A stretch of 61,944 nt of DNA from an uncultured Spirochaetaceae bacterium (GTDB taxonomy: Bacteria > Spirochaetota > Spirochaetia > DSM-27196 > PWMO01). The stretch lies in contig CAYPTH010000001.1 of assembly GCA_964413635.1 (NCBI GenBank), positions 18,249-80,192 on the forward strand. Reading direction: 5' to 3'. The position numbers were made by a program, and so were the translations under genes. This document shows positions 6,434 to 61,944 of this stretch, piece after piece. The notes under the pieces were generated by a model. The model had not been told where the DNA came from. It did no database searches and was given only the letters and a program-made list of their open reading frames with translations. Within the stretch, counting starts at the first letter, position 1. Every line of letters begins with the position of its first letter.

Positions 6434-6474
6434 CGCGCAGCGCGGCGCCCCGGAACGGGGCGCCTGACGCTGCG
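6434..6474 (-). promoter_or_regulatory. GC-rich intercistronic stem-loop between the solute-binding-protein and permease genes
   Basis: GCGCAGCG-c-GGCGCCCCG-gaa-CGGGGCGCC-tga-CGCTGCGC: a 9-bp inner stem plus an 8-bp outer stem. There is no U-tract, so it more likely acts as a partial terminator or mRNA stabiliser than as a full terminator. Confidence 0.45.
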
Positions 6475-6502
6475 CGATACGTTTTGCTCTGCGCGGTACG
6501 CC

Positions 6503-7795: not shown

Positions 7796-7806
7796 ATCGT
7801 CCTCCT

Positions 7807-7835
7807 TTGTGGAAATTATGTAACCGATTCCACAA
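7807..7835. promoter_or_regulatory. Candidate LacI-family operator / inverted repeat in front of the solute-binding-protein gene
   Basis: TTGTGGAA-N13-TTCCACAA inverted repeat. Embedded in it is TGTAACCGATTCCA (7819-7832), which resembles the TGTAAGCGGTTACA site at 8931. It lies between a TTGACA (complement of 7867-7872) and the RBS. Confidence 0.5.
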
Positions 7836-7868
7836 CTGGACTCAGAATGCCACCACTTCGGCGTGTTG

Positions 7869-46124: not shown

Positions 46125-46943
46125 ATGCGCCGGGTCCTGCCGATTGCCACGCTCTTCCTCATCTTCACGAGTACCGTCCTCCTCGCGGCGCCACAGGCCG
46201 AGCTGTGGCCTCGCTGGAGCAAGCACGACCCCTCGAGTACGCGAAGCGTCGATCACGAGGCGTGGGGAAGCTTTTTGGACGAGTACCTCCTCACCGACAC
46301 CGACTCCCGCGTGAACCTGCTTCGCTACGGCAGTGTCACGGAAGACGATGCTCAGGCTCTCGACCGCTATCTACAGCGCCTCCAGGAGGTTCCGGTATCC
46401 TCGCTGAACCGGGCGGAGCAACGCGCCTTCTGGATCAACCTGTACAACGCCTACACGGTGAAAGTGATCTTGGACCACTACCCCGTCGGGTCCATCCGTG
46501 ATATCGACATCTCCGGACTCTTCAGTAACGGACCCTGGGATGCGGAGCTGATGAGCGTTGAGGGAGTGGATATCACCCTAAATGACATCGAGCACCGAAT
46601 ACTGCGACCGATCTACCAAGACCCTCGGATCCACTACGCGGTGAACTGTGCAAGCATTGGCTGTCCGAATCTCCAGCCTGAGCCCTTCACGGCGGACAAC
46701 TACGAGCGCTTAATCAATCGTGGGGCGGCCTCCTACATCAACCATCCTCGGGGTGTGGACACCTCCTCGGAGCCCATTGTGCTGTCGAGCATTTATCAAT
46801 GGTTCACCGAGGATTTTGGCGGCAGCTTCGAGGGCGTGGTGGATCATCTGGGGAAACACGCGCGACCCGAGCTTGCCGCCTTCCTGAGAGACTATGAGGG
46901 GCGTGTCGACTACGACTACGACTGGTCGCTCAACGAACCGTGA
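46125..46943 (+). CDS. DUF547 domain protein (secreted)
   Basis: Signal peptide, then FWINLYNAYTVKVILDHYP and HYAVNCASIGCPNL, as in DUF547. Confidence 0.7.
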   Translation: MRRVLPIATLFLIFTSTVLLAAPQAELWPRWSKHDPSSTRSVDHEAWGSFLDEYLLTDTDSRVNLLRYGSVTEDDAQALDRYLQRLQEVPVSSLNRAEQRAFWINLYNAYTVKVILDHYPVGSIRDIDISGLFSNGPWDAELMSVEGVDITLNDIEHRILRPIYQDPRIHYAVNCASIGCPNLQPEPFTADNYERLINRGAASYINHPRGVDTSSEPIVLSSIYQWFTEDFGGSFEGVVDHLGKHARPELAAFLRDYEGRVDYDYDWSLNEP

Positions 46944-46975
46944 GCGTAATGGTGGCGCCGCAGCCGGCGCGGCGG

Positions 46976-48649
46976 CTACTGTGGCGGGAGAAGCGGTTTC
47001 TCGGTACGATCGAGAAGCGTCCGTCGAAAGAGGGCGGTAGTGAGCCTTGGGAATAGCGTGCCGAAGACCCCGAGGAGCTTGGCAGAGGTGCCCGGAACAA
47101 CGACGGCGGCGCGGTGCTCAACGGCGCTCACCACCTCCCGAGCTACCAGCTCGGGGCTACGACGTCTTCCCTCCCGGCTCCCCGGCGGACTGTAGCGCCG
47201 CGCGTGGGGCGTGCGAACCGGCCCCGGCATGACTGTGCAGATGTGCACCCCGTCTACGGCACAGTCCGGACGAATGCCTTCCGCGTACCCGACCAATCCC
47301 GCCTTTGTCGCAGTGTAGCTCGCCGCACCGGGATAGCCGGTACGCACACCGAGAGTCGAGAAGAACACCACGCTCGCTCCCCGTCGCAATGCCCGGGCCC
47401 CTTCCCGCTCCCGGAGGAGCTCTTCCGTAAGCAACAGCGGTGCGCGCAGATTTACCTCGTACACTGCGCGGTGCGCTGCAAGTGGAACCTCCCCGAAGCG
47501 CCCCACAGCGCTGATGCCGGCACAGTGAAATACCGCGTGTACACCGCCGCGGCTTCCGCCGCCCCACTCGCTGCGCAGAAACTCCGCGAAGGCCACGACC
47601 TCTTCCTCCCGGGAGAGATCAAGCGCGTAGTCCACCAATCCGGGTTCTTCGGTCGGGAGATCGGCAACAAGGACGTCGGCTCCCCGTGCCGCGAGGAGTT
47701 GCACTATTGCCTTCCCAATACCGCTTGCCCCTCCGGTAACCACGATGCGGGCATCCCTCCATCCGCCGAATGGTCGCGCGCGACGCAGAGCCGACGTCGC
47801 ACGGTGACGCCCGAAGAAGGTGCTTAGCCCTCCGACCGCGTAGACGAGGGTGTTGACTCTACCGGCGCTTCGTCGTCGCAATTGCCGTCGAGGGTTCGCC
47901 GCGGCGCGGCGCAGCAAGACGGCGGCGGCGGCGGCGACCCGCTCAGGCGCCGCGCCGCGGGGAGGGGAGTCCGCCGACAGCAGGCCGCTCTTGTAGTGCA
48001 TACCGGTTCGGGTGCTACCTGGCCGCAGCACGGCCACCGTCCTCCGCACCACCCGCCGGTGACCCGAGCCTTCCGCGGCGAGATTCCATGCGAAGGCCTC
48101 CACAGCGGCTTTTGAAGCGCCATAGCTTGCGAAGTTACGGCAGGGGTGGGAGGCCATGACGGACGAAACGAAGAGATGAACCATTACCCGGGGGGTGAGC
48201 TCTTGCCGTTCTTCCAGCGTGTGGGCCAGATGAATGGGGGCCCAGAGATTCACCTCCAACACGGCGAGAAAGATCTTCAGGTCGCCGGCGCCCGGGGGCG
48301 CCACCACACCCAGACCGGCGTTGTGCACGACCGCGCCAATCTTTTCTGGAAGGGAACGCAGCGCAGCGCCGTCACCTGAGTGCCACAGCCTTGAGAGATC
48401 GATTTGCCTGTAGTCGAGATTGTCGCGCTCCCCGCCGCTTCCGTCGTCGGCGGCAAAGGGCGCATCCCCCGGCGGGCGGCGGCCCACCGCGACCACGCGC
48501 CTTCCCTTCGCGGAAAGTGTCTCTGCGAGGGCGAGGCCGATACCGTCGGTCGCTCCGGTCACAAGGATCGATTCGATCGGACTCCCGGTTGGCTCGCTCT
48601 CACTCCTGCGCAGCATCAGCGGGACCGCCGACCTTGCGCTGGATCGCAC
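46976..48649 (-). CDS. Tandem short-chain dehydrogenase/reductase (two complete SDR domains in one 557-aa protein)
   Basis: Domain 1: VTGATDGIG ... YGASKAA. Domain 2: VTGGASGIG ... YTATKAG. An alternative start at 48616 still overlaps the upstream gene. Confidence 0.8.
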   Translation of the reverse strand: MRSSARSAVPLMLRRSESEPTGSPIESILVTGATDGIGLALAETLSAKGRRVVAVGRRPPGDAPFAADDGSGGERDNLDYRQIDLSRLWHSGDGAALRSLPEKIGAVVHNAGLGVVAPPGAGDLKIFLAVLEVNLWAPIHLAHTLEERQELTPRVMVHLFVSSVMASHPCRNFASYGASKAAVEAFAWNLAAEGSGHRRVVRRTVAVLRPGSTRTGMHYKSGLLSADSPPRGAAPERVAAAAAVLLRRAAANPRRQLRRRSAGRVNTLVYAVGGLSTFFGRHRATSALRRARPFGGWRDARIVVTGGASGIGKAIVQLLAARGADVLVADLPTEEPGLVDYALDLSREEEVVAFAEFLRSEWGGGSRGGVHAVFHCAGISAVGRFGEVPLAAHRAVYEVNLRAPLLLTEELLREREGARALRRGASVVFFSTLGVRTGYPGAASYTATKAGLVGYAEGIRPDCAVDGVHICTVMPGPVRTPHARRYSPPGSREGRRRSPELVAREVVSAVEHRAAVVVPGTSAKLLGVFGTLFPRLTTALFRRTLLDRTEKPLLPPQ

Positions 48650-49328
48650 GCCGCGCCACGCGGGTCACGTAGATGGTCACCGCAACGGTTGCCACCAGAC
48701 CCACACCGTAGAGCACCCACTCCCCGGTCGTACGCGCGCGCTCCTCGGCTCCAAGCACGGCGAGGCTCTCAATGAGTGAGCCAATGTAGACGTACATGAC
48801 GGTGCCTGGAAGCATGCCCGCCCAAGAGGCGAGCATGTAGGAGCCGACGCCGACCTTCGTCAAGGAGTAGATGTAGTTGGAGAGGTTAAAGGGAAAGAGC
48901 GGGCTCAGGCGCAGGAGAAAGATGATCTTCCCTCCCTCCTGGCCAATTGCATCGTCCACGGCGGAGAAGCGCTCACTCCGGCCGATCTGCTTGGAGACCC
49001 AATCCCGCATGAAATAGCGGCCCACCAAGAAGGCGGCGGTTGCACCGAGGACCGAACCGACGGACACGTAGATCGTTCCCCAGACAACACCAAAGACGGC
49101 GCCGGCACCAAGGGTGGGGATCGACCCGGGAACGAAGAGAACCGTCAGGACAATGTAGAGGGCAATGAATATTATGGGGCCGACGGCGCCGATACCGTCG
49201 ATCCAGTCCAGGGCAATACGAAGGTATCGCGGTACCTCGAGGTACCACCCGAGGAAGAGCAACACCACGGCTGCAACAATCAATCCAATGACCTTGACGG
49301 CTGAACCGGAAGAGGGCTTTTCAGGCAT
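48600..49328 (-). CDS. TVP38/TMEM64 (DedA-related) family membrane protein
   Basis: Five or six TMs with the VPGSIPTLGAGAVFG and LSPLFPFNLSNY motifs. Confidence 0.75.
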   Translation of the reverse strand: MPEKPSSGSAVKVIGLIVAAVVLLFLGWYLEVPRYLRIALDWIDGIGAVGPIIFIALYIVLTVLFVPGSIPTLGAGAVFGVVWGTIYVSVGSVLGATAAFLVGRYFMRDWVSKQIGRSERFSAVDDAIGQEGGKIIFLLRLSPLFPFNLSNYIYSLTKVGVGSYMLASWAGMLPGTVMYVYIGSLIESLAVLGAEERARTTGEWVLYGVGLVATVAVTIYVTRVARRAIQRKVGGPADAAQE

Positions 49329-50790
49329 GGTACGCTCCTTCAGTGGGTACGTCGCCGCGGTAGCCGTGGAGGAAGCGCAGGATCCTTCGGACTCGTTTGT
49401 TGAACAGCTTCGGCGCCATGAAGCCGGAGACGGCCTTCTTGTGCACCTCGCCGAGGCTCGGATATGGAAAGATCGGAGCCATGAGCTTGCTCACCTTCCA
49501 CTCACCGTTCACCGCAAAGAGCGACGGCAGGAGCAGGTCCGAGGCGTGGAGCGCCGCGATCTGCGTGCCGATGACCCGGCCCTTCTTGTCGAGGATGATC
49601 TTCATCTGACCACCGGGCTCTCCTTCCGCGTTTGCCCGGTCGTTCGAGTCGAGGGGCTGTCGAATGACATCATAGTCGAGCCCTGCCTCTCGGGCGCTCT
49701 GCTCGTTGTATCCAATCGAGGCGAGCTCCGGATCGGTATAGGTGACCCACGGAATGTTGCGATAGTTCATGCTTCCGCCCACCCGCAGGGCAATGCGACG
49801 AACCGCAACAGAGCCTTCGGCTCCGGCGACGTGGGTAAAGAGGTAGCGTCCGTTCACGTCACCGACGGCCAGAATGTGGCGCTGCGACGTACGGAGCTTG
49901 CTGTCGGTCGGTATGAAGCTTTTGTCGACTTGCACCCCTGCGGCTTCAAGCGCGAGGCCGTCGGTATTGCCCTTCCGACCGGCGGCGACGAGAATTTCAT
50001 CGCCCTCGAGGATCTCTTCGCTCCCCTCGTTGTCCAGGACAACCCGTTTCGTCGCGCCGTCTTGCTCGACCCGTGAAATCTTGACGCCCAGACGCAGGTC
50101 ACCCCCTTCGGCGACAATGCGATCGTGTACGATCTGCGTCATGTCGGCATCGTCCTTTGGCAGGATCTGGGGTGCGACGTCCAGAGTCGTAACCTTGCTG
50201 CCGAGACGCAGGAAGGCCTGGGTCATTTCCGTTCCAATTGGCCCGGCGCCAATGACCAGCAAGCGGTCGGGCCGTCTGCTCAAGCTGAACACATTCAGAT
50301 TCGTGATATAGCCGGTTTCCTCGAGCCCCGGAATGGGAAGGCCGCGAGGACTACTCCCCGTGGCAATCACAATCGACCGCGCGGAGATACGCTGAGAGTC
50401 GTTGACGACAATTTCGTGGGGGGAGGTGAATTTGGCGTCTCCCAGGTAGACCTCGGCGCCCATCTTCTCGAAGCGCTCGGGAGCGTCGTGGTGCGCAATG
50501 CCGGCGATCACGCTCTGGACGCGAGCGTTGACCTGCTGCATATCGGGTTCGGGAAGGCGCGCTTCGGGAAGACCGTAGCGCTGAAACTGCCGCGCCTGGT
50601 GGTAGACCGTTGCACTCTTGAGAAGAGCCTTGCTCGGCACGCAGCCGTAGTAGAGACAGTCGCCTCCGAGACGCTCCTTGTCGATGATAGCCGTCTTGAG
50701 ACCCAGTTGTGCGCACCCAACAGCGGTAACGAGACCGCCGGCGCCGCCGCCGAGTATGATCGCATCGTGAGAGTATCTAGCCATGAACAC
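49321..50790 (-). CDS. FAD-dependent pyridine nucleotide-disulfide oxidoreductase (dihydrolipoyl dehydrogenase / mercuric-reductase-like)
   Basis: GGGAGG FAD motif, redox-active GGDCLYYGCVPSK, NAD motif VIGAGPIGTE, and a C-terminal dimerisation domain. Confidence 0.85.
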   Translation of the reverse strand: MFMARYSHDAIILGGGAGGLVTAVGCAQLGLKTAIIDKERLGGDCLYYGCVPSKALLKSATVYHQARQFQRYGLPEARLPEPDMQQVNARVQSVIAGIAHHDAPERFEKMGAEVYLGDAKFTSPHEIVVNDSQRISARSIVIATGSSPRGLPIPGLEETGYITNLNVFSLSRRPDRLLVIGAGPIGTEMTQAFLRLGSKVTTLDVAPQILPKDDADMTQIVHDRIVAEGGDLRLGVKISRVEQDGATKRVVLDNEGSEEILEGDEILVAAGRKGNTDGLALEAAGVQVDKSFIPTDSKLRTSQRHILAVGDVNGRYLFTHVAGAEGSVAVRRIALRVGGSMNYRNIPWVTYTDPELASIGYNEQSAREAGLDYDVIRQPLDSNDRANAEGEPGGQMKIILDKKGRVIGTQIAALHASDLLLPSLFAVNGEWKVSKLMAPIFPYPSLGEVHKKAVSGFMAPKLFNKRVRRILRFLHGYRGDVPTEGAYHA

Positions 50791-50930: not shown

Positions 50931-52580
50931 GTGTCGAAACAAAGCACAATGAGTCTGCTAGGCGCGGATTCGGATACTCGCCGGATCTCGAAAGACGCGG
51001 TGCAGGATCTCGAGATAGACGTCCTCGTGGAAGCCTTTGCGGCCACACCCCAGGGGCGGCGGCTGGTCGAGCGCGCCCTCACACAACTGCCCCTCGATCC
51101 GGATGTCACTCGCTATCGTCAAGAGAGCTTTCGCTTTCTCCACGAACATCGGGAAGTTCGGGAGCGGCTGCGTGCAGTAATTCCCAAGATTCGTGAGCTC
51201 ACCGTCTTTAGCCACTCCCAGGGCGGCACCGATTCGCCGTTTCTCAGCGCGGTCTGGCGCATTGGTGAGTTGGACCTCTACGTGGAGTGCCTCGACGCAC
51301 TGCATGCTGCCTTCGACCTCGCGTCTCCACCCGCCTCCGCCGCTGGCCTCCGCGCCCTTCGCGACGCCGTTGCGGAGCGCCGGTCGGGCAACGCAGTGGA
51401 AGCCTTGCGCCGCGAGATCCCGCCTCTCAAGGAGGGATTGCGCAAGCGACGCAGCGTGACGATCGGCGTGAACCTGGACGACCGGCTCCGGCCGGTGGAG
51501 GCAAAGCTCGTATCCGTTCACGACCGGCCCTTTTCCGAGACGGGGCTCCTGACCGAGTTCTTTCGCAGTTTCCGGTCGGGCGAACAAAAACCGGTCTCCG
51601 CGCCGCTGCATCGAAGCCCTTCCGGGGGAAACGGACAGTCGGCGTACACAACGAAAATGCCCTTGAGTCCCCTCTTTCAGGACTTGGAGGGGATAATGCG
51701 GACGACCTCGAAGCGCATCCTCTCGAAGATCGAGTCCTTCCTGAGCGTAGAGACGCAGGTAATCCAGTCGCTCCCGGATGAATTGGAGTTCTTCATTGGC
51801 GCGGCCGATCTGGCCGATCGCCTCCACGCGGCGGGTCTGCCGACCTGCACCCCCACGCTGGATGCGACGACATCCCACACCCTCTCCGCCCGGGCAGTCT
51901 ACAACCTGCCCCTTGCCCTTCGCCGGCTAAATGAGGGCTCGCCCGACGGAGAGCCAGTGGTGACGAACGACATTGCCATGGGTCCGAACAAGCGGGGCGC
52001 GATCGTGACGGGGCCGAACCGCGGGGGCAAGACCACCTATCTCCAAGCGCTCGGTCAACTCCAGGTGCTGACGCAGGCGGGGCTGTTCGCGCCCGCCAAA
52101 GAAGCGACGGTGAGTCCAGTGGACTACGTGGCAACGCACTTTCCGCAGCGTGAGCACAGCGCCAGCGAGCTCGGCCGTTTCGGAGAGGAGGTTGCTCGGC
52201 TCTCCGAGATTTTCGACGAGCTCTCCTCCGACAGCTTCGTGATCCTGAACGAATCCTTTGCGAGCACGAATCCAAGCGAGGCGATTGCCTTTGGAAGTGA
52301 GGTACTCAAAGCCCTCGCCGACGCCGGGACCCGCGCCCTCGTCGCAACGCATCTCGTCGACATGGCTCGGACGGCCGAATCCATGGGCCACTACAGCGCC
52401 TTGACTGCGCAAGTAGAAACGACCGAACACGGAGCGGTACGGACATTCCGGATTGTTCCGGGCGTCCCCGAGAGCAGCAGCTACGCCTACGATTTGGTGA
52501 AGCAGGCCGGGATGACCTACGAGCAACTGAGCGAACGGCTCCAGCGGCGCGGCATACTCCCGAAGGAGACGGACTCGTGA
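50931..52580 (+). CDS. MutS-family ATPase lacking the mismatch-binding and nuclease domains (domain III/V-only MutS-related protein)
   Basis: GPNRGGKTTYLQALGQLQVLTQAG (MutS Walker A context), VILNESFASTNP (Walker B region, Asn in place of the usual Asp), and THL.... GTG start at 50931 or ATG at 50949. Confidence 0.75.
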   Translation: MSKQSTMSLLGADSDTRRISKDAVQDLEIDVLVEAFAATPQGRRLVERALTQLPLDPDVTRYRQESFRFLHEHREVRERLRAVIPKIRELTVFSHSQGGTDSPFLSAVWRIGELDLYVECLDALHAAFDLASPPASAAGLRALRDAVAERRSGNAVEALRREIPPLKEGLRKRRSVTIGVNLDDRLRPVEAKLVSVHDRPFSETGLLTEFFRSFRSGEQKPVSAPLHRSPSGGNGQSAYTTKMPLSPLFQDLEGIMRTTSKRILSKIESFLSVETQVIQSLPDELEFFIGAADLADRLHAAGLPTCTPTLDATTSHTLSARAVYNLPLALRRLNEGSPDGEPVVTNDIAMGPNKRGAIVTGPNRGGKTTYLQALGQLQVLTQAGLFAPAKEATVSPVDYVATHFPQREHSASELGRFGEEVARLSEIFDELSSDSFVILNESFASTNPSEAIAFGSEVLKALADAGTRALVATHLVDMARTAESMGHYSALTAQVETTEHGAVRTFRIVPGVPESSSYAYDLVKQAGMTYEQLSERLQRRGILPKETDS

Positions 52581-54424
52581 GGGGCCGCCGGGGTATGCGG
52601 CGAGGAAGACTATTGCTCGTCCCCGCGCTCACGCTCACGCTGGTTGCTGTTGCCGCCGCCCCCGTGGTGGCACAAGATATCGACGTCCGCGTATCCATCA
52701 CCTATGGATTCGACGGGCTCGGAAAACCCGGACGCTGGACGCCGGTCGTCGTCCGCCTGAGCAACTTCGGCGACGCCATCCGCGGCGAGCTTGCGGTGCG
52801 CAGCGTGCAGGGACAACGCACCTCCACGGAACGTTACCCCTTCGTCGTTCGAGAGGAGGTCCACATTGGCAAAGGCGTGAGCGAGGTGCTGCGCTACATT
52901 GTTCCGGTCGGCACTCCCGCCCTTCCCGTCGAGATCACACTTCGGAACGAAGACGGGATGATCTACCAGGAAGAGATCGATGCGACCTCCCGAATTGCTC
53001 CGGAGGCGCTCGTGGTAAGTCTTTCCGCCGATCGCAGTCTGGAATCTCTCCTCTCCTCGCCGGGGATTGAGACGGAGGGGATACGCCTCCGCGCCTCGGG
53101 GCCCATCGCGGTGGCGTATCCCCTTCCCGAGTTCCTCCCGGAGGCGTGGTATGGATACCACGGCGTCGACCTGCTCTTTCTTGCCGACGCCCCGCTCAAT
53201 CGCCTGTCCTCCCCCCAATGGACGGCAGTGCGTGACTGGGTAATCCGCGGGGGCGTGGTGATCGTGACCGATCCGCGGCCCGGCGCGCCGGAAAAAAAGC
53301 GCATAACATCTTTGTGGACCGAGGGGGACAGGACGGAGAAAGAGCTCGAGGGCGCCTTCACGACACGGAGGCTCGGTGCAGGTCGTATCCACCGCCTCGA
53401 TTTCCCAGCCCCCCGACTGACCGCCGGCGACGAAGCGGCGGCGACGGCGCGCAGAAGCATTCGTGAGTTGGCCCTCAGCCCCGCCCACGGCGCACTGCGC
53501 CCCACGCACCCCTCGCACCCCTCGCTTCCCGTCTTGGTTCGGCGGCAACCATTCAACGATCCAGTCAATCAGGCGATCCTCGACGGGCCGATCTACGACT
53601 ACCCGTCGCGGTGGCTCATAGCCTTGGCCCTCGCCGCCTACCTCGCCGCCTTTGCCGTTCTCATCCGGCTGATGCAGCGGGGAAACAGGAGCGTTGCCCC
53701 GGCGTTGATCGGCGTCCCCCTGGCCGTCGCCGGGGCGTTCTATCTCGTCCTCTCGGTTGCAAATCCCGCTCCGCGCCATGCGCTCATCGAGATTCAGCGG
53801 ATCGCCGGGGCTGCGGAAGCGCCTATCGCACACGTCGAGCGAGACGTCCTGGCTCTCGCCGCGGAGGGTCGCGCCTTTACGCTGTTTCCCCCGGAAGGTG
53901 CAGCTGTCATCCCCATTGAGGGCGAGGCGAATCACGTCCATCTGGCAGGGGGCAAGCGTATGTTGGAGACGGCCCTTCCCCGATGGCGCGAGGCGCACTA
54001 CTATTTGGCGGATCGTGCGCCAACTCCACTGCAGGTGAGGCTCATTGGAGACGCTCAGGGAGGAGCCGTCGAGCTCTCCAATAGGACCGGGCACCTCATA
54101 GAGGAGGCCTTCCTGGTCTTCAGTAGCAGCATATACGACATCGGAAGCGTAAGCCCCGGCCAAAACGTGGAGCGCAGCTACGACGCCGCTGCCCCCGTTT
54201 CCTGGGACGGAGCTCCTCCACGGATCAGGGAGGTCGTCGAGCTTCGGCAAGCGTCACTCGGCCCCGTTGGTAGCGCCGCGCAAGCGCAGGGATTGCTTAT
54301 TGCGATAGCCACGCAGCTGGCACCGGTCACGACCGCGCAGCCCCCCTTCGACGCACATCACAGCTTCGCGATCGCCGAAATCCAGATGCCCGTTCCGCGG
54401 GAGAGCGAGGAGGTCGCGCCGTGA
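52577..54424 (+). CDS. Hypothetical exported protein with two central TM helices
   Basis: GTGA overlap with the upstream gene. Signal peptide RGRLLLVPALTLTLVAVAAAPVVAQ. TM pair around WLIALALAAYLAAFAVLI and LIGVPLAVAGAFYLVLSV. No catalytic motif recognised. Confidence 0.7.
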   Translation: MRGRRGMRRGRLLLVPALTLTLVAVAAAPVVAQDIDVRVSITYGFDGLGKPGRWTPVVVRLSNFGDAIRGELAVRSVQGQRTSTERYPFVVREEVHIGKGVSEVLRYIVPVGTPALPVEITLRNEDGMIYQEEIDATSRIAPEALVVSLSADRSLESLLSSPGIETEGIRLRASGPIAVAYPLPEFLPEAWYGYHGVDLLFLADAPLNRLSSPQWTAVRDWVIRGGVVIVTDPRPGAPEKKRITSLWTEGDRTEKELEGAFTTRRLGAGRIHRLDFPAPRLTAGDEAAATARRSIRELALSPAHGALRPTHPSHPSLPVLVRRQPFNDPVNQAILDGPIYDYPSRWLIALALAAYLAAFAVLIRLMQRGNRSVAPALIGVPLAVAGAFYLVLSVANPAPRHALIEIQRIAGAAEAPIAHVERDVLALAAEGRAFTLFPPEGAAVIPIEGEANHVHLAGGKRMLETALPRWREAHYYLADRAPTPLQVRLIGDAQGGAVELSNRTGHLIEEAFLVFSSSIYDIGSVSPGQNVERSYDAAAPVSWDGAPPRIREVVELRQASLGPVGSAAQAQGLLIAIATQLAPVTTAQPPFDAHHSFAIAEIQMPVPRESEEVAP

Positions 54425-55224
54425 AGAATCCGCGCCGGCCGGGGGCTGAGCCGGGGGCTGAGCCGTGGGGGGAAAACACGCCGCGTATCTCGGCCTTTCT
54501 CCTCCACCTCTCCGTCTTTCTGACCCTGTTCGTGGTGATTCTGTGGCCCGCGTCGAGCTACGTTGCATTCTTCCGATACGGAAACGTTCCGATTGTGTAC
54601 GAGTTCGCCGCCTTCGTGCTGCCCTTGGCCCTTGCCATTGGAAGTGCATACCAGGGCGTTCTTACCACACCGCCGGGCGCCTCGTTGGACAGTTGGTCAT
54701 CCGACGGTGATGGGATTGAGGCTCGCGACCCCCGAAAGGGCCTGCCAAAGGGTCTGCCGAGTGGCCTGAGGCGCGTGCTCTGGGAGTTCTATGGCGCGGC
54801 GTGTCTTACCGCCGTGGCTGCTCCAATTGTGGTAATCGGCGGATCGGTCTCCCGCGCCCCTCTCGCAGCGAGCGCGGAGGTGCTGGCAATTCTCCTCTCA
54901 ACGGCTATTGTCTTCCGGCCCATCGGCGTGCTGACCCAAGGAATTACCCGGAATCGATCGCTTCAGTATGTCCTCATGTGGCTCTTTGTCATTGGCGCCT
55001 TCTACGCAACCGCCTACTGGCTCCCGGCGGCCAACCCCATTGTCGCGGTGACCAACGCGGCGCAGGCGACACGCATCGGTGGCGGCAGTATCTTCTTCGT
55101 GGAGCTCGAAGCGCACCGCCCACTGATGGCGCCGGTGTACCATCTGGGCTTTGCTGGATTCATGACGGCTTTGGTGGTATTTTCGGGATACGCGGCCCGC
55201 CATCGCGGAGGGGCAGAATCCTGA
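54421..55224 (+). CDS. Hypothetical polytopic membrane protein
   Basis: GTGA overlap with the upstream gene. At least 5 hydrophobic helices. No ABC-2 or other signature that I can name. Confidence 0.65.
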   Translation: MKNPRRPGAEPGAEPWGENTPRISAFLLHLSVFLTLFVVILWPASSYVAFFRYGNVPIVYEFAAFVLPLALAIGSAYQGVLTTPPGASLDSWSSDGDGIEARDPRKGLPKGLPSGLRRVLWEFYGAACLTAVAAPIVVIGGSVSRAPLAASAEVLAILLSTAIVFRPIGVLTQGITRNRSLQYVLMWLFVIGAFYATAYWLPAANPIVAVTNAAQATRIGGGSIFFVELEAHRPLMAPVYHLGFAGFMTALVVFSGYAARHRGGAES

Positions 55225-55301
55225 ACCGACGCAGCCAGTCTCCCAAATCCTTTCCGCTCGTAACGGCCCAACTCGCCCGGCATCTACGGCAAAACACCTT
55301 T

Positions 55302-56708
55302 GTGCGCCATGTCGTCCTCTACGAGGCGTACGCACTCCTGTGCATGGCCGCCCTGATGGCAGTGAGCGCATTCTCGCCCCTCGCCATTCCCGGTCTCGTC
55401 ATTTGGCTCATCCCATCCGGACTGGCGCTTCTGGGCGCGGTCGTACAAGCGGTGAGAGTTGATGCGCGACCTGAGCGGGTTCTGTGGGACGCCGACCTCG
55501 CGTACGGGTATCGCCATCTCCTCCCAACCGCCTTCGAGCTCTGGCGAGTCCGGAAACAGAGCGAGAAGGAGGGCAAGGATCACGAAGGATCCGACGTTGC
55601 TGACATCGTCATTGACCAGGGTCTTGCACAGGTGCAGTATCTGCGTCCGGAAACGGTCTATCCCCTTGCCCTGCCGCGCCGGCTCTACCTGCTTCCCCTG
55701 GGCGCGCTGGCGTGTTTGGTCATTCTTCTCGCCGCGCAGGGGATCAGCCGGGACGCCCCGCCAAACCCATGGGCCGGCTACATTGAGGAGTTGCGCAGCC
55801 AATCCGGGCGGATCGCCCGGCGTTCCGAAGCCCTCGGCGACGAGGAGGGAGCGCGGCTCGCGCAACAACTCGAAGAGCTGAGTGATACCTTGGAGAGCCG
55901 TCCCGAGCAGAAGGAGATCGAGCGGGAGCTGAACGAGCTTCTTCCGCGCCTCGAGAATCACATGCGGAGCCTCGGAGCCAGCGATCTGGTCGCCGGAGAA
56001 GAGGCGGGCCGCAACGAGCTAGAGGGCGAGGCCGAAACCACCGGCTCGCTTCGAGCGAGGCGCGTCGAGGACGGCTCGAGCGCCCCGGTGGATATCGGCG
56101 GGACCAGTGATGGGGAACCCGCCCCGGCCCGGGATGGCGCGGCCGCCGGGGACTCGACGCAGGAGCCGGAGGAAGATGGGACGGAGTCCGGCGGAGAAGG
56201 GGACGAAGGGGACGAAGGGGACGCAGAGGACTTGGGCAGGGAGCTTCGCTCCGCCCAGAACAACCTCCAGGAATTGGGAGAGCAACTGGCACAAGGGGAC
56301 GAGTCGAGATCCGATCGGTCCGACGACGCGGCGCCGCAGCCCGACGAGCAACCCGGCTCCGGGCGCAGCGGCGAGCGGGAGCAGGGCGGTTCATCCGTGC
56401 AAGGCACGAGCGACGAGGCGGGAATTGGCAGCACCCCGGACCTGGGAGAAGAACCGACGGCGCGCCTGAGCGAGATCATTCGAGAGATGACCGAGCTCCC
56501 GTCGAACGAGGAGCACAGCGCCTTTACGGAGCTCTTCTCCCGCGAGACCCCTGGTGAGCCCCGAACCTCCCTCGAGGAGCGCGCGGTGACCCCCGAGTTC
56601 CAGAGACAGATCGAGGCGGCTGTGGGCCGCAGCACGGTTCCTGCCGACATGCAGGGATACGTTCGAGACTACTTCCTGCGGATAGCCAGAGCGGCGGAGA
56701 TGGAGTAA
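55302..56708 (+). CDS. Membrane-anchored coiled-coil protein with a highly acidic disordered region
   Basis: The frame is open from 54801. The first canonical start after the upstream stop is GTG 55302 (a CTG at 55221 would give a CTGA overlap). Two or three TMs, then ELRSQSGRIARRSEALGDEEGARLAQQLEELSDTLE..., a D/E/G-rich tract, and a tail ending VPADMQGYVRDYFLRIA. Confidence 0.6.
   Translation: MRHVVLYEAYALLCMAALMAVSAFSPLAIPGLVIWLIPSGLALLGAVVQAVRVDARPERVLWDADLAYGYRHLLPTAFELWRVRKQSEKEGKDHEGSDVADIVIDQGLAQVQYLRPETVYPLALPRRLYLLPLGALACLVILLAAQGISRDAPPNPWAGYIEELRSQSGRIARRSEALGDEEGARLAQQLEELSDTLESRPEQKEIERELNELLPRLENHMRSLGASDLVAGEEAGRNELEGEAETTGSLRARRVEDGSSAPVDIGGTSDGEPAPARDGAAAGDSTQEPEEDGTESGGEGDEGDEGDAEDLGRELRSAQNNLQELGEQLAQGDESRSDRSDDAAPQPDEQPGSGRSGEREQGGSSVQGTSDEAGIGSTPDLGEEPTARLSEIIREMTELPSNEEHSAFTELFSRETPGEPRTSLEERAVTPEFQRQIEAAVGRSTVPADMQGYVRDYFLRIARAAEME
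56196..56222 (+). repeat. Tandem 9-bp repeat GAAGGGGAC x3 inside the acidic tract (encodes EGDEGDEGD)
   Basis: Three perfect units at 56196-56204, 56205-56213 and 56214-56222. Confidence 0.8.
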
Positions 56709-56711
56709 CGC

Positions 56712-57731
56712 ATGAACGATTCACCGAGTGGGAGCGTAGGCCAACAAACCGAGAAGCTTGCAGCGAGCTACCTCGACAAGTTGCGCAGCGCGCAGCGGCA
56801 GATCAGCCGCGTCATTGTGGGCCACAGCGAGCTGATAGAAGAAGTCTTTGCCTGCCTCCTCTCCGGCGGTCACGCGCTTTTAGAGGGAGTGCCGGGACTT
56901 GGAAAGACGATGCTGATTCGCGCCTTCGGCGAATCCCTGGATCTCACGGCAACTCGGGTGCAGTTTACCCCGGATCTCATGCCGGCGGATATTCTGGGCA
57001 CCAACACCCTGGTGCAGGACGATCTCGGCAATCAGCAGATAAGCTTCCGACAAGGCCCCATATTCACCCAGATTCTTCTGGCGGATGAGATCAACAGGGC
57101 GACGCCGAAGACGCAGTCCGCCCTGTTGGAAGCCATGCAGGAGCAGCGCGTAACGATCAGCGGCACCACCTACCCCTTGGAGCTGCCGTTCATCGTTCTG
57201 GCAACGCAGAACCCGCTCGAGCTCGAGGGAACGTACCCGCTTCCCGAGGCGCAACTCGACCGATTCTTCTTCAAGCTGCACGTGGGCTACCCCGACAACG
57301 CCGAGATGATGCAAATCCTCAACCGGACAACCGGCGCTGCGGTGCCGACCGTGGAACAGGCGCTATCCGGCGACGACATCGCCGAGATGCAGCACTTCGT
57401 GAGAACCCTGGTGGTTTCGGAAGACATAAAGCGCTACGCCGTGCGACTGGTCTTTGCGACTCACCCCGACCGAGCCGGGGCGCTCGAAGGGGTACGCAGC
57501 TTCGTCCGCTACGGTGCGAGCCCCCGGGGCGCCCAAAGCTTGGTCCTGGGGGGCAAGGTCTTTGCCCTTCTCGCGGGACGCTTTCACGTAGCCCCGGAGG
57601 ACATTCGTCGAGCCGCCTTTCCCAGCCTCCGTCACCGAGTCGTCCTCAACTTCCGCGGCGAAGCGGAAGGTCTGACCAGCGAGACCGTGGTGCAGAACAT
57701 TCTCGACACCGTCCCTGAGAAGGATGCATGA
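56712..57731 (+). CDS. MoxR family AAA+ ATPase
   Basis: GVPGLGKT, LLADEINRATPKTQSALLEAMQE, and FIVLATQNP... are the standard MoxR motifs. Confidence 0.92.
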   Translation: MNDSPSGSVGQQTEKLAASYLDKLRSAQRQISRVIVGHSELIEEVFACLLSGGHALLEGVPGLGKTMLIRAFGESLDLTATRVQFTPDLMPADILGTNTLVQDDLGNQQISFRQGPIFTQILLADEINRATPKTQSALLEAMQEQRVTISGTTYPLELPFIVLATQNPLELEGTYPLPEAQLDRFFFKLHVGYPDNAEMMQILNRTTGAAVPTVEQALSGDDIAEMQHFVRTLVVSEDIKRYAVRLVFATHPDRAGALEGVRSFVRYGASPRGAQSLVLGGKVFALLAGRFHVAPEDIRRAAFPSLRHRVVLNFRGEAEGLTSETVVQNILDTVPEKDA

Positions 57732-58633
57732 AGCGCGAGATCGATGAGGCCATTTTCGCGCCGGAGTTCCTAGCACTCCTCGAAGGCCTCACAATTCCAC
57801 TGACTCGCTCACCGCGCAACCCGATTCCCGGAGGTCATCTGAGTCGACGCCACGGCGCAAGTCTGGAGTTCTCCGAGCTTCGTCCCTATGAGCCGGGGGA
57901 GGACCTGCGTTCCGTGGACTGGAACGCGTACCTGCGCCTGCAGCGCCTCTTCGTCCGCCGTTTTCGCGCCGAGCGGAGCCAAGACGTGTACCTCATGCTC
58001 GACACCAGCCGTTCAATGGGCGTGGAAGACCGAAAGTTCGCATCTGCACGGCGACTGGCAGCTGCGTGCGGCTTTCTGGCAACTCGGCAGCTCGATCGGG
58101 TCACGCTCATGCCCTTCTCCGACGCAGTGAACGATCGCTTCGTGCAGACCCGCCGCGGAACCATTCCCGTTGAGCTCCTCGAGTACCTTTCGGGAGTCAC
58201 GTGCGCGGGGCAAACCTCCATCGGTTCCTGCGCCTTTGCGGTAGCGGAGCAGATCCGCCGTGGTGCATTGGTAATCTTCATCACCGACTTCTTGGACGAG
58301 CGTGGCCTCGAAGAGGGCTTGCGCGCCTTGGCCGTACGGAATGCGGACGTCGTCTTCTTTCACGTATACACCGGCGAGGAGGAGCACCCGGAGGCGCGGG
58401 GTCCCCTCACACTACAAGACGAGGAGACGCGGGAGCGCTACGAGATCACCGTGGATCGAGCCGCAGCCCGCGCCTACGCCGAGGCCTTCGGACGCTTTGC
58501 ATTGGAAACGCGCACTCTCATTGAAGGCTACGGCGCCCAGTACGTCCGAGCGCGCATCGATACGCCCCTCGAGGAGGTCCTCTTGAGCTTCATTGAGCCC
58601 AGGGAGTATCGATCCGCCGGGGGAGCACGGTAG
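57728..58633 (+). CDS. DUF58 domain protein (VWA-like, MoxR partner)
   Basis: ATGA overlap. GASLEFSELRPYEPGEDLRSVDWNAYLR and MIDAS-like LDTSRSM. Confidence 0.88.
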   Translation: MKREIDEAIFAPEFLALLEGLTIPLTRSPRNPIPGGHLSRRHGASLEFSELRPYEPGEDLRSVDWNAYLRLQRLFVRRFRAERSQDVYLMLDTSRSMGVEDRKFASARRLAAACGFLATRQLDRVTLMPFSDAVNDRFVQTRRGTIPVELLEYLSGVTCAGQTSIGSCAFAVAEQIRRGALVIFITDFLDERGLEEGLRALAVRNADVVFFHVYTGEEEHPEARGPLTLQDEETRERYEITVDRAAARAYAEAFGRFALETRTLIEGYGAQYVRARIDTPLEEVLLSFIEPREYRSAGGAR

Positions 58634-60444
58634 TGATCATCACGCAAACCCTGGGCCTTTGGCTCCTTGCGCTCGTTCCAATCATTGTCCTGGCCCATCT
58701 CCTCTTTCAACGCCGCCGGGTTCAGCCCGTCTCGTCAATCATGATCTGGAAGCGCTTGGGGGCAAGCAAGCGCCGTCGCCTCTGGATCAAGCGCGTCTTG
58801 AATTGGCACTTGCTTCTTCAAGTCCTCGCGGTGATTCTTGCAGCGCTCGCGCTCTCCCAGCCGACTCTACGATCCTCCCTGCCCACAGCCGCGGACCATC
58901 GCGTCCTGCTCGTGGATACCAGCGCGAGCATGGCGGCGAGGGACTCCTCGGGACTTCGTATTGCGTCGGCGCGCCGGACCGCCGTGGAGATTGTCCGCGG
59001 TTCCTCCCGCGCCACCGAATTCACCTTGATCGAGATGGGTGCCTCCCCACGCCTCGTCGGGACCTTCGACCGCGGCGACCCTCGCCTCATTGATGCGATC
59101 GAGACCGTGAGCGCCACCGACGAGGCGACCGACATTGTCGGAGCCCTCGACTTCGTCGAAACAATAACGCGTGAGGAGCGCAGCGCCGCGGTGGAGATCA
59201 TCACGGATGCCGCCTTCGCCCCGGCGGAGCTTGCCTTCGACCCGGAGCGCTATACCGTGCACGCCGTCGGGACTCCCGCGGATAACGCCGGAATCACCGC
59301 TTTCGAGATCCGGCGCACCCCCGACGATAGCGCCTACCAGCTCTTTGCGCGGATTGCCAACAATGGAAGCACCCGCGTGGACGCCACGGTACGACTCCTC
59401 GAGAACGGGAACCTCGTCACATCTCGCAACGTCTCGGCGGCGGGTGGCGGAACCACAACCGTCACGGCGGACCTTGTCGGCGCGGCCGGCGGACGAATGC
59501 TCCTGTCGCTAGACGTTGATGACGCGCTTGCCGCGGACAACCGCGCCTTCGCCGCCCTCTCCGGAACCCGGAGCATCGATGTAGCGCTCGTTGGCGAGGG
59601 CAACCACTTTCTCGCAAGCGCCCTGGCGGTCCATCCGAATGTACGTCTCACGCAATACCGCGAATACGGCCCGGAGATTGATGCCGATGTCCTTGTCCTC
59701 GATCGTCTCGAGGAAGTCCCCGTTGTCGAGGGACGCGTACTCGCCATTAACAGCACCGTTGCCGGCATTCACGTTCGACCCGCGGGCTTCATCGAAAACG
59801 TTGGGGACGTGGCGTGGTCCGACACGCATCCGGTGACCGCCGGAATCGACATGTCCGGAACCTTTCTGCGCATCGCTCGCCCCTACATTCTCGGCGCCGG
59901 CGCGCGGGCCATCCTGAACCGCGGGGCCCACGTCCTCGGCTACGTTGCCGACACACCGAGCGTCCGTGTTGTCGGATTCGGCTTCGATTTGCAACGGAGC
60001 AACGTGCCCCTGCACCCCGGCTTTCCCATGCTCATGCGGCGAGCCATTGAGTGGCTCTACCCGCACGGTGGAGAAGCAGAGAGTTGGCAGATCTCGGCGG
60101 GTGAGGTCGTACAGCTCGAGACGCTGCCGGGAACACCGGTACGAGTGACGCACCCCAATGGTGAGGTCTCCGCCTACACCGGCGACGAGCTTACCGTCCC
60201 CTTTGCGGAGACCAGCCACGTCGGCTTGTACGAGATCAACCGCGGCGACACTCGCTCCGCCCTGGCGGTGAACCTTCTCAGCGCGGAGGAGAGCGACTTG
60301 ACGCCCCGGTTTGCACCGCCGCAAGAGGTGACCCTCGATACTGCGGGGGAGCCACGAACTGGTCGCGACCTGTGGCGGCTTTTCCTGCTCCTGGCCGGAC
60401 TCCTCGTTCTCGCTGATTCCCTGCTATGGAGCCGACGGTCATGA
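58633..60444 (+). CDS. BatA-like protein: N-terminal double-TM aerotolerance-type domain + VWA domain + C-terminal TM
   Basis: GTG overlaps the TAG of DUF58. LWLLALVPIIVLAHLLFQRRR...SSIMIWK, VWA MIDAS LVDTSASM, and C-terminal LFLLLAGLLVLADSLLW. Confidence 0.8.
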   Translation: MIITQTLGLWLLALVPIIVLAHLLFQRRRVQPVSSIMIWKRLGASKRRRLWIKRVLNWHLLLQVLAVILAALALSQPTLRSSLPTAADHRVLLVDTSASMAARDSSGLRIASARRTAVEIVRGSSRATEFTLIEMGASPRLVGTFDRGDPRLIDAIETVSATDEATDIVGALDFVETITREERSAAVEIITDAAFAPAELAFDPERYTVHAVGTPADNAGITAFEIRRTPDDSAYQLFARIANNGSTRVDATVRLLENGNLVTSRNVSAAGGGTTTVTADLVGAAGGRMLLSLDVDDALAADNRAFAALSGTRSIDVALVGEGNHFLASALAVHPNVRLTQYREYGPEIDADVLVLDRLEEVPVVEGRVLAINSTVAGIHVRPAGFIENVGDVAWSDTHPVTAGIDMSGTFLRIARPYILGAGARAILNRGAHVLGYVADTPSVRVVGFGFDLQRSNVPLHPGFPMLMRRAIEWLYPHGGEAESWQISAGEVVQLETLPGTPVRVTHPNGEVSAYTGDELTVPFAETSHVGLYEINRGDTRSALAVNLLSAEESDLTPRFAPPQEVTLDTAGEPRTGRDLWRLFLLLAGLLVLADSLLWSRRS

Positions 60445-61944
60445 CGCTCTCCTTCGCAACACCGTGGCTTCTGATCGTCGCCGTGGGGCTCCTCCTCGCC
60501 GGCGGGCTCGCCCTGCTCCTCGAGCGCTCGCCCTACCGGACGCTGTCGGCGGGTCTCCGCGTCGGCGCGCTTGTCGCGATAGCCCTGGCCCTTGCCGGTC
60601 CTTCCGTGAGCGGCCGGGACCCCGGCATCCACACGATCTACCTGATAGACGCCTCGGCGAGCGTCTCGCAGGCGAGCAGGGACGAAGCGCTCACGCTGAT
60701 CTCCGCGTCCACGGAGGAGCTGTCTTCGCCGAATAGCGCCGGCGTCATGGGATTCGCCGGGGAGTCCCGAGTTCTTGTCGCCCGGACCTCTCGCAGCGCC
60801 GAGCTCCAGGCCGTCCTTGCAGACGCCGCCGCTTTCGAAGACACCCTCCGAAAAGGCGCAAGCAACCTTGCCGGGGCAATCGAGCACGCCGTAGCGGAGC
60901 TGCCGGAGTCCGGCGACCGGCGCATCGTCCTGGTCTCCGACGGCACGGAAACCGCCGGGAACGCCCGCGCGGCGGCAGCGTCGGCGAGGCGCCGCGGCGT
61001 TCGCCTCTCCACGGTCTTCACCGGCGATCCGGAGAGACGTGAAACCCGCATTGCCGAGTTGCGGGTTCCCGAACGAGTTGACGCGGGGGATGTCTTTGAA
61101 ATCTCCGTGGTGACCCAAAGCAGCGGGCCCGCACAGGGCACCCTTTACCTCTATCGTGACGGCGAATCTCTTGGGTCGGACCGGGTGGAGTTGAGCCGTG
61201 GGAGAAGTGTCTTCCGCTACCGAGACGAGTCGGAGGCGCCGGGAATCCACACCTACCGAGCGATCCTGGAAAGCGACGCGGATACCTTGTCCGAAAACAA
61301 TCGCGCCGCCGCGGCCCTGCGCGTCGGTAGCGGCACGCGGGTGCTGTACCTACGAGATTCGGAGCAGCCGCGTCCCTTCGAGCGCGCCCTGGCAACACAG
61401 GATATCCGCGTGGTCGGACGAAGCCCCAGTGAGCTCGGGGCGACCCTCACGGAGCTCTCCGCCTTCGAAGCGGTGGTGGTCGACAACGTGCCGGCGGCGC
61501 GCTTCTCCCTTTCGAGGATGAACGAGCTCGAGCGCTACGTCAGGCAGACCGGCGGCGGCTTGATCATGCTCGGCGGACCCGCTTCCTTCGGGGCGGGTGG
61601 CTACTTCCAGACCCCGGTGGAACAGCTACTGCCGGTCAGCATGGATGTGACCTCGACGGTGCGCGTGCCTACCCTCGCCATGCTCTTCGTCGTCGACAAG
61701 TCCGGGAGCATGGAAGCCTCCCCCGGCACGGGCGTCTCCAAGCTGGACGTCGTGAAGGAGGCGGTTCTCTCCTCCGTTGAGATCATGAATCCCTATCACC
61801 TAATTGGCCTGATCTCCTTCGACGCTTCGGTCGAGCGAACGGTACCGATCACCCGTGCCGCGCGACGAGAGGGGATAGCTCGCGACGTGGCGCGGCTCAG
61901 GAGTGGCGGAGGCACGGTTCTCGCCACTGCCATGGAGGAAGCCA
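60441..61944 (+). CDS. Membrane protein with two VWA domains and an intervening GATase1-like region (3-prime end beyond the window)
   Basis: Absent from the ORF track (open at the edge). My translation from ATG 60441 (ATGA overlap) gives MTLSFATPWLLIVAVGLLLAGGLALL...IYLIDASASVS...RIVLVSDGTET...GGGLIMLGGPASFG...LFVVDKSGSMEA... Confidence 0.8.
   Translation, partial: MTLSFATPWLLIVAVGLLLAGGLALLLERSPYRTLSAGLRVGALVAIALALAGPSVSGRDPGIHTIYLIDASASVSQASRDEALTLISASTEELSSPNSAGVMGFAGESRVLVARTSRSAELQAVLADAAAFEDTLRKGASNLAGAIEHAVAELPESGDRRIVLVSDGTETAGNARAAAASARRRGVRLSTVFTGDPERRETRIAELRVPERVDAGDVFEISVVTQSSGPAQGTLYLYRDGESLGSDRVELSRGRSVFRYRDESEAPGIHTYRAILESDADTLSENNRAAAALRVGSGTRVLYLRDSEQPRPFERALATQDIRVVGRSPSELGATLTELSAFEAVVVDNVPAARFSLSRMNELERYVRQTGGGLIMLGGPASFGAGGYFQTPVEQLLPVSMDVTSTVRVPTLAMLFVVDKSGSMEASPGTGVSKLDVVKEAVLSSVEIMNPYHLIGLISFDASVERTVPITRAARREGIARDVARLRSGGGTVLATAMEEA

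Follow-up and report, generated by a model that had tools for sequence, protein, structure and literature searches.

Near one end of a 61,944-nucleotide (nt) stretch of DNA from an uncultured Spirochaetaceae bacterium (hereafter the window), eight open reading frames (ORFs) follow one another on the + strand, here called genes A to H: a MutS-like ATPase gene (A), three genes for membrane-associated proteins (B, C and D), a MoxR-type ATPase gene (E), a DUF58 gene (F) and two genes for proteins with VWA domains (G and H). A first reading of the letters alone (the sequence-only reading) had proposed that in this row a MutS-family ATPase heads, and might energise, an envelope operon. The comparison of gene neighbourhoods presented here leads to another reading, in which an extended variant of a Bat-like MoxR/VWA envelope module, widespread and little described, lies beside a fortuitous MutS-like gene. 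The row quite probably consists of two independent abutting units, a stand-alone MutS paralogue (A) and a seven-gene envelope module (B-H). The features concerned, with their basis in brackets, are as follows.

50949..52580, + strand: gene A, MutS-related ATPase with MutS domain V only (Pfam MutS_V)
52248-52253, + strand: Walker B residues N440-E441 of A (family alignment)
52577..54424, + strand: gene B, exported membrane-anchored protein, first gene of the module (profile family, AlphaFold2 model)
54421..55224, + strand: gene C, polytopic membrane protein (hydrophobic segments, slot, hhalign)
55221..56708, + strand: gene D, membrane-anchored protein with coiled coil and acidic low-complexity region (conservation of N-terminus and C-terminal motif)
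56712..57731, + strand: gene E, MoxR-type AAA+ ATPase (Pfam AAA_3, AAA_lid_2)
57728..58633, + strand: gene F, DUF58 protein, VWA-like partner of MoxR (Pfam DUF58)
58633..60444, + strand: gene G, BatA_N + VWA protein (Pfam VWA_2, BatA)
60441..61944, + strand: gene H, 5' part only, last gene of the module (Pfam VWA_2, VWA, weak GATase1_like)
49321..50790, - strand: Pyr_redox_2-type flavoprotein oxidoreductase gene, divergent from A and outside the module (orthologue annotation)

Neighbourhoods of the MutS-like gene and of genes B-H

Whether A is part of the module was addressed by comparing neighbourhoods. A scan for the MutS-like protein, with one genome per species, confirmed 593 relatives, and the loci of the best 80 species were fetched (loci are designated by L numbers throughout); these belong to Spirochaetota, Chloroflexota, Ruminococcus and other Clostridia, Paenibacillus and Entotheonellaceae. 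Within 10 kb of the MutS-like gene, neither MoxR nor DUF58 was present in 79 of these best 80 loci, and the B-H genes were present in a single one, L005, which belongs to the same clade (62% identity). When the ORFs of 84 loci were clustered, no neighbour of A was found to be conserved across phyla, and nothing was shared beyond a spirochaete subgroup. The MutS-like gene is thus not syntenic with MoxR/DUF58 in unrelated genomes, an outcome that the sequence-only reading had itself named as speaking against its proposal.

Comparison of close relatives located the border between the two units. The eight-gene layout, together with the same upstream genes, was found in L001/L002, L005, L085 and L086 (62-89% identity of the MutS-like protein), and L093, from the same contig as L001, extends beyond H. 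In L093 the order is Pyr_redox_2(-), MutS-like(+), B-H(+), Abhydrolase_2(-), methyltransferase(-), Dus(-), hypothetical(-), ADH(-), tRNA_Me_trans(-), HMG-CoA synthase(+). L003 and L007 come from two other spirochaete species, with MutS-like proteins 41-44% identical to A, and their order is Pyr_redox_2(-), MutS-like(+), Abhydrolase_2(-), methyltransferase(-), Dus(-), hypothetical(-), tRNA_Me_trans(-), HMG-CoA synthase(+). The flanks of L003/L007 are therefore collinear with those of L093, with proteins 37-68% identical, minus exactly B-H. In L093 this block of seven genes (about 10.6 kb) lies exactly between the stop of the MutS-like gene and the stop of the convergent Abhydrolase_2 gene; neither direct or inverted repeats of at least 10 nt at both of its borders nor an integrase or tRNA gene at them were found there. 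An orthologue of the oxidoreductase gene, 68-78% identical, stands beside the MutS-like gene in L001-L003 and L005-L007, and it is annotated as Pyr_redox_2/Pyr_redox_dim in L001, L003, L085 and L086. Gene A holds a conserved chromosomal slot of its own, divergent from the Pyr_redox_2 gene.

Further upstream of A, a stretch coding for DUF212, pseudouridine synthase, Asp23-like, TPR, PolyA polymerase and Pyr_redox_2 proteins (window 46125-50790; L001:1-9790) keeps the same gene order throughout the spirochaete group, whether the module is present or not. Genes for DUF547, a double adh_short and VTT_dom were seen only in the module-bearing members of the clade and are absent from L003.

The module, for its part, was found without a MutS-like gene in an Armatimonadota genome, in two unassigned long contigs and in four metagenome contigs. 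L088 (G 34% identical) carries the row B-C-D-MoxR-DUF58-G-H, with a divergent sbcCD upstream and a gene on the opposite strand after H; the same row follows an MFS gene in L089 (G 30% identical), and Zn_ribbon_8 and AdoMet synthase genes in L092 (Armatimonadota). The B matches in L088, L089 and L092 have E-values of 2.5e-22, 3.5e-18 and 1.6e-6, respectively, those of C and D in L088 8e-7 and 4e-7, and the MoxR protein of the window (gene E) is 54-62% identical to the MoxR proteins of L088-L090. Two further arrangements carry a transporter. In L091 (Chloroflexota, 1688-8041) the order is B (810 amino acids (aa), DUF4350+DUF7408)-ABC_tran-ABC2_membrane-D-MoxR-DUF58-G-H, and in L090 (Verrucomicrobiota) an ABC_tran/ABC2/GldG-like/DUF4340 transporter lies directly upstream of Zn_ribbon_8-D-MoxR-DUF58-G, without B and C.

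A metagenome scan with the G alignment provided 80 more loci, 79 of them with a scorable G-like gene, which were annotated by purpose-built hidden Markov models; counts were restricted to loci with enough sequence upstream of G (2.2, 4.2 or 7.5 kb). MoxR and DUF58 were present in 37 of the 45 loci with at least 2.2 kb, and D lay directly upstream of MoxR in 18/29 loci with at least 4.2 kb, as it does in L088-L092. With at least 7.5 kb upstream, B was found in 7 of 22 loci, four of which have C and three ABC_tran+ABC2 in its place. No MutS-like match was obtained in the 79 loci with a G-like gene. Altogether, a single row unites B with MoxR and DUF58 both in the window and in 12 non-clade loci, with homologues in the same position in L088, L089, L091, L092, L095, L104, L107, L114 and L121. 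Where the gene next to B on its upstream side could be seen (8 loci outside the clade), it was never MutS-like.

Some of these loci vary in their layout. ABC_tran and ABC2_membrane genes replace C between the B-like and D-like genes in L091, L122, L134, L136, L142, L147, L156 and L173, and B lies downstream of G in L155 and L163, followed by ABC_tran in L155. A small Zn_ribbon_8 (FmdB-like) gene, not present in the window, directly precedes the module in L090 (5755-6048), L092 (3822-4097) and L121 (3750-4028). A second, divergent MoxR-DUF58 pair was seen just upstream of the module in L104 (641-2928), L130 (2706-4577) and L152 (2224-4138).

By their gene order, B-H are a conserved envelope-protein operon in several bacterial phyla: the module occurs in Spirochaetota, Armatimonadota and uncharacterised metagenome lineages, with a Chloroflexota variant that carries an ABC-2 transporter and a Verrucomicrobiota form that lacks B and C and lies beside a GldG-type transporter. 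The MoxR-DUF58-VWA module thereby gains three conserved upstream partners, a DUF4350/DUF7408 family, an ABC-2-like protein and an unnamed coiled-coil family. The sequence-only reading had set B, C and D outside the MoxR picture; this does not hold, since in other phyla they recur as conserved companions of MoxR-DUF58-VWA, and a link between DUF4350, MoxR and vWA proteins had already been described in archaea (PMC5898192).

The neighbourhoods also answer the idea of a MutS-family ATPase that heads or energises an envelope operon: 79/80 loci of its relatives are without MoxR/DUF58, L003/L007 are without B-H, and elsewhere B-H are without a MutS-like gene. Judged by these comparisons, A is a resident neighbour in one spirochaete lineage and not a part of the module, and A and B-H are evolutionarily independent; most likely they are also functionally independent, and the row would represent an operon fusion without functional dependence. 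Because a DNA-repair-type ATPase heading an envelope operon fails as a conserved system, the locus reveals no new role for MutS.

Proteins of the seven-gene module and their proposed role

The sequence-only descriptions of the proteins A, B, C and D agreed with Pfam, hydropathy and the AlphaFold2 model, and Pfam supported its assignment of the downstream half as MoxR-DUF58-BatA/VWA-double VWA. For B, a word-index search returned the 6 clade members only, and a full HMMER profile search was used; it placed at least 1,315 representative clusters in the family at E-values of 1e-3 or below (230 at 1e-10 or below), mostly of 600-680 aa. An AlphaFold2 model built with 6 sequences had a predicted local distance difference test (pLDDT) score of 52 and was set aside for one built on a 56-sequence alignment (pLDDT 90.2). 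The latter shows B with an N-terminal hydrophobic helix, an alpha/beta domain (about 145-275) set between beta-sandwiches, a hairpin of transmembrane segments at 344-396 and, C-terminally, a beta domain. A Foldseek search of the PDB with this model yielded only generic beta-sandwich matches (template modelling score of at most 0.22), so no fold assignment was drawn from it. The match of B to DUF4350 (E-value 9e-4, 20 bits) is below the Pfam cut-off of 30.4, and a weak DUF4350 match was also seen in 6/6 clade B proteins; in the family, 31 of 56 members match DUF4350 (best E-value 4e-5) and 35 of 56 DUF7408, most of them below the Pfam thresholds. The alpha/beta domain of B is a candidate flavodoxin-like, DUF4350/GldG-like domain, and the C-terminal domain resembles DUF7408, the matches being sub-threshold.

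No Pfam or NCBIfam model exists for the partner families C and D, and neither protein gave a match in these databases. C has 5-6 hydrophobic segments by hydropathy, and homologues were found in L095, L104, L107, L114 and L121 with E-values of 2e-8 to 2e-12. Its slot is the one that is taken by ABC_tran + ABC2_membrane in L091, L122, L134 and L136. When C was aligned by hhalign to the permeases of the variant loci (13 versus 8 sequences), a probability of 86.5% was obtained (E-value 4.6e-6, 161 columns), and with 8 versus 2 sequences the probability was 1%; the result is treated as no more than suggestive, given that transmembrane proteins inflate such scores. Its slot and this alignment make C a probable diverged ABC-2-type permease, one that lacks a partner ATPase gene: Pfam detected no ABC_tran gene among A-H, and ABC_tran is present only in the variant loci L091, L122, L134, L136, L142, L147 and L173.

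D combines N-terminal transmembrane segments and a coiled coil with an acidic middle (between residues 201 and 400, numbered from codon 55221, each 50 residues contain 12-16 D/E) and has the conserved C-terminal motif VPADMQGYVRDYFLRI. A D-like C-terminal motif, [VI]P...Y...V[RK][RD]YF..L, was present in every locus examined; written as [VI]P..Y...V[RK][RD]YF..[LI], it is kept across phyla (window 56609-56708, L088-L092 and about 18 metagenome loci) by a family that is otherwise of low complexity. DUF4175, a remembered candidate for D, was rejected, the sole match having an E-value of 0.45 and the other D-like proteins giving none.

The proteins E-H form a MoxR AAA+/VWA chaperone module, in which AAA_3 and AAA_lid_2 stand beside DUF58/VWA proteins with a metal ion-dependent adhesion site (MIDAS). 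E matches AAA_3 (E-value 9e-60) and AAA_lid_2 (7e-16), and its translation has intact Walker A (GVPGLGKT) and Walker B (LLADEINR) motifs. F matches DUF58 (8e-32) and carries a DTSRS (DxSxS) motif. G (603 aa) matches VWA_2 (5e-12) and BatA (1e-8, 35.8 bits against a cut-off of 25.9), with transmembrane segments at 1-27, 54-79 and 579-601, the MIDAS motif DTSAS and a beta-rich extension. H, of which 501 of about 880 codons lie in the window before its end truncates the gene, has a double transmembrane anchor, a VWA domain, a weak GATase1_like match and a second VWA domain; its full-length orthologue has 878 aa in L093, where the convergent Abhydrolase_2 gene follows, and 858-969 aa in L088-L092. 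The DxSxS MIDAS motif is intact in all four VWA-type domains, i.e., in F, in G and in both domains of H.

These proteins could work together as follows. By analogy with NorQ/NorD and RavA/ViaA, a cytoplasmic MoxR hexamer (E) would act with the DUF58 VWA-like adaptor (F) and remodel or assemble a membrane complex of the MIDAS-bearing, anchored VWA proteins G and H; the complex would also hold the GldG-like B, the ABC-2-permease-like C and the membrane-anchored coiled-coil protein D. MoxR/VWA pairs are described as remodelling or metal-insertion chaperones (PMC9976466, PMC13036017). In Borrelia, the BatA/VWA protein BB0173 sits in the inner membrane and has its VWA domain in the periplasm, and Rhizobium cmd mutants show envelope defects (both PMC5700661). 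The module is likely, by analogy with Bat/cmd operons, to serve envelope protein assembly, secretion or maintenance.

The same MoxR-VWA genes, with or without the MutS-like ATPase, could instead constitute a nucleoside triphosphate (NTP)-dependent anti-phage or abortive-infection system of the MoxR-vWA ternary type. Such conflict systems exist (PMC7159879), and E gives a weak bpMoxR match in Pfam (E-value 1e-10), but AAA_3 fits E far better. B-H do behave as a presence/absence block between related genomes, a block that is nevertheless without integrase, tRNA gene or flanking repeats, and the module is syntenic and widespread in housekeeping contexts. PADLOC returned no significant match for the eight proteins (two matches only, with E-values of 0.004 and 0.009), no nuclease, protease, TIR or beta-propeller effector domain was found in the row, and 5/7 module proteins are membrane or exported proteins. 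A role in defence is thus extremely improbable, and the envelope module remains the preferred reading of B-H.

Gene A and its junction with the module

The ORF list and the reading of the sequence agreed with the eight + strand ORFs of the sequence-only reading and with the junctions that it had described: GTGA at 52577-52580 (A/B) and 54421-54424 (B/C), a 3-nt gap before 56712 (D/E), ATGA at 57728-57731 (E/F), TAGTG at 58631-58635 (F/G) and ATGA at 60441-60444 (G/H). The C/D junction (55224/55302), which it had left unclear, also proved to be tight. In relatives the D start sits on the stop codon of C (ATGA in L001 and L086, GTGA in L085), and the window codon at this ancestral position is CTG (55221); no in-frame ATG, GTG or TTG occurs in the window sequence between 55080 and GTG 55302. 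The 27 residues encoded by 55224-55301 are conserved with respect to the D N-termini of L085, L001 and L005, and GTG 55302 is GTA in L085, the closest relative. Because the ancestral codon is now CTG and 55224-55301 is conserved at the protein level, the D start is narrowed to CTG 55221 or GTG 55302, and C and D are one tightly packed row under either start. The CTG at this position points either to CTG initiation or to a recent shift that dropped 27 conserved N-terminal residues.

An AAGGAG Shine-Dalgarno sequence lies 7 nt ahead of GTG 52577 of B, and the B homologues begin at the equivalent of ATG 52595, so that the A/B spacing is -4 or +14 nt. The junctions are also tight in five further clade loci (62-89% identity of the MutS-like protein), from a 4-nt overlap to a 6-nt gap, or up to 30 nt with alternative starts. 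Since the ribosome-binding site of B is inside the 3' end of A, the module is probably read through from the promoter of A, and co-transcription of A with B-H in this clade appears likely from the gene packing. An Rfam scan of the whole window gave no match.

Gene A has an alternative start, GTG 50931, that would give 549 aa; P0001, which is 100% identical to A, starts at the ATG, and P0002 ('Spirochaetes bacterium') is 89% identical. A belongs to the MutS family by its domain V, an ABC-type ATPase (Pfam MutS_V, residues 358-528, E-value 7e-23). Its PDB profile matches are the ATPase domains of MutS2, MutS and MSH only (E-value about 1e-32, residues about 337-526), and the N-terminal ~340 residues are without a PDB counterpart. 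The Walker A motif is GPNRGGKTT and THL is present, and Walker B has Asn-Glu (LLNES), not Asp-Glu (LIDEL in MutS2), in 17/17 aligned family members, which suggests altered ATP hydrolysis or Mg2+ coordination.

Two assignments of A were considered and rejected. As a MutS1 mismatch-repair protein it would lack domains I-IV (no Pfam match to MutS_I, II, III or IV at E-values of 0.1 or below), and it scores 75-96 bits against NCBIfam MutS models with cut-offs of 480-642. As a MutS2 it would lack the C-terminal Smr domain (no Smr match; A ends about 20 residues past domain V), and its score against TIGR01069 is 87 bits, the cut-off being 400. A is closer to the description of MutS3 and MutS4, MutS paralogue subfamilies with MutSac (domain V) only (PMC2190696; Lin, Nei and Ma 2007), with which it shares an ATPase near the C-terminus, the lack of mismatch-binding and Smr domains, and a patchy distribution. 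However, MutS4 genes occur in adjacent pairs, A is single and its family has the Asn-Glu Walker B, the likeness being one of description only. A is unlikely to be a MutS4, because no second MutS-like gene was found beside it in 84 loci.

A further explanation of the adjacency is that A was captured functionally: its ABC-fold ATPase would be the NTPase of the ATPase-less B-C half, replacing ABC_tran, and the eight genes would be one operon. MutS domain V is a member of the ABC ATPase superfamily, C is probably derived from an ABC-2 permease, and the variant modules place ABC_tran + ABC2 exactly at the slot of C; in these ATPase-bearing variants, however, the ATPase is encoded after B and ahead of the permease rather than upstream of B, and eight B-C-D modules elsewhere are without an adjacent ATPase. 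We know of no MutS-family protein that docks on a transmembrane domain. The A and B genes are joined by overlaps of stop and start or by gaps of at most 6 nt (at most 30 nt with alternative starts) in the window, L085, L001, L005 and L086, but A is also the positional orthologue of stand-alone genes in the module-less L003, L006 and L007, and in the alignment it keeps all family-invariant residues, with no clade-specific feature seen. MutS paralogues with non-repair roles do exist, such as MutS2 in plant ribosome quality control (reported in a preprint), and A matches the NCBIfam KamC reactivase ATPase model. If capture were true, a DNA-repair-family ATPase would work on a membrane complex as a non-orthologous replacement of the Chloroflexota-type ABC_tran. 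What the comparisons offer for it comes down to adjacency, and capture is very unlikely.

Several points nevertheless weigh against reading A and B-H as two independent units and B-H as a Bat-like envelope module. The A/B overlap or gap of at most 6 nt (at most 30 nt with alternative starts) is found in 6/6 clade loci spanning 62-100% identity, and this conserved tight junction is compatible with selection for co-expression; moreover, an ABC-fold protein, A, adjoins precisely an ATPase-less variant of a module that elsewhere has an ABC ATPase. A scan found no + strand promoter-like (sigma-70) site inside the row, and terminator-like sites were no commoner than in shuffled sequence, both scans being weak evidence. 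The difference in the presence of the B-H block may represent gain or loss. L088 and L089 are long contigs without taxonomic assignment, and the gene upstream of B is clearly visible in only 8 loci outside the clade. Finally, the proposed role is based on analogy, and deletion of bat in Leptospira gave no phenotype (PMC3557215).

Relation to Bat, cmd and other known systems

The closest known relative is the Bat operon (including Borrelia bb0170-bb0176 and Leptospira bat), with which the window shares MoxR, DUF58, a double-transmembrane BatA_N VWA protein and a further VWA protein on one strand. The locus could accordingly be read as an ordinary bat operon for oxidative-stress tolerance, in which B, C and D would be divergent forms of BatC, BatD and BatE. 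MoxR, DUF58 and BatA_N+VWA do stand in Bat order, and Bat homologues have been reported across Spirochaetes (PMC3557215). However, the window is without BatC (TPR), BatD and BatE (SH3) genes, and no TPR, BatD or SH3 match was obtained in the eight proteins with Pfam and NCBIfam. It has instead three additional conserved genes upstream of MoxR, related to DUF4350/DUF7408 and ABC-2-like proteins, and the module ends after H in L093, whereas BatC/BatD/BatE lie downstream of BatB. At 603 aa for G and about 880 aa for H, the two proteins exceed BatA and BatB two- to threefold in length, and they have extra beta-rich and, in H, GATase1_like domains. The divergent Pyr_redox_2 oxidoreductase neighbour would suit a role in oxidative stress, but such a role is doubtful because the Leptospira bat deletion had no such phenotype (PMC3557215). 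The sequence-only reading had considered that profile searches might assign B, C and D to described Bat families; they assigned none to BatC, BatD or BatE, which sets the locus apart from a plain standard bat locus, and a classical aerotolerance operon is an unlikely account of it.

The extended Bat-like module, as we prefer to read it, can also be compared with the cmd genes of Rhizobium leguminosarum, which we take to encode MoxR, DUF58, a BatA_N-type membrane protein and a GATase1_like membrane protein. The genomic region of the cmdA-D genes (RL3499-RL3502) has been equated with the conserved Bat locus, and their mutants are affected in envelope and cell morphology (PMC5700661). The cmd genes are four in number, with no described equivalents of B, C and D, the comparison being one of descriptions only.

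In archaea, DUF4350 proteins, which are GldG-like with a flavodoxin fold, are encoded with COG0714 MoxR and vWA proteins, and together these are predicted to form a complex for secretion or membrane remodelling (PMC5898192; Makarova et al. 2015). The arCOG01314-MoxR-vWA loci resemble the module in that an exported, anchored DUF4350 protein is encoded with MoxR and vWA, and in that most components are membrane or extracytoplasmic proteins. The archaeal proteins differ in having a single C-terminal transmembrane segment and S-layer/Ig-like partners, whereas B has an internal transmembrane hairpin, a DUF7408-like C-terminus and the partners C, D, G and H, and its DUF4350 match is sub-threshold.

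The GldA/GldF/GldG ABC-2 transporters provide the remaining likeness: B would compare with their auxiliary subunit, C is probably a diverged permease, and Chloroflexota-type variants have genuine ABC_tran and ABC2_membrane genes between B and D. On the other hand, the window is without ABC_tran, C is shorter and fails the Pfam ABC-2 models, and the Gld transporters are not known for a link to MoxR/VWA. The Bat/cmd-type MoxR systems, which are poorly understood, now appear linked to envelope machinery of the GldG/ABC-2 type, and with concrete partners.

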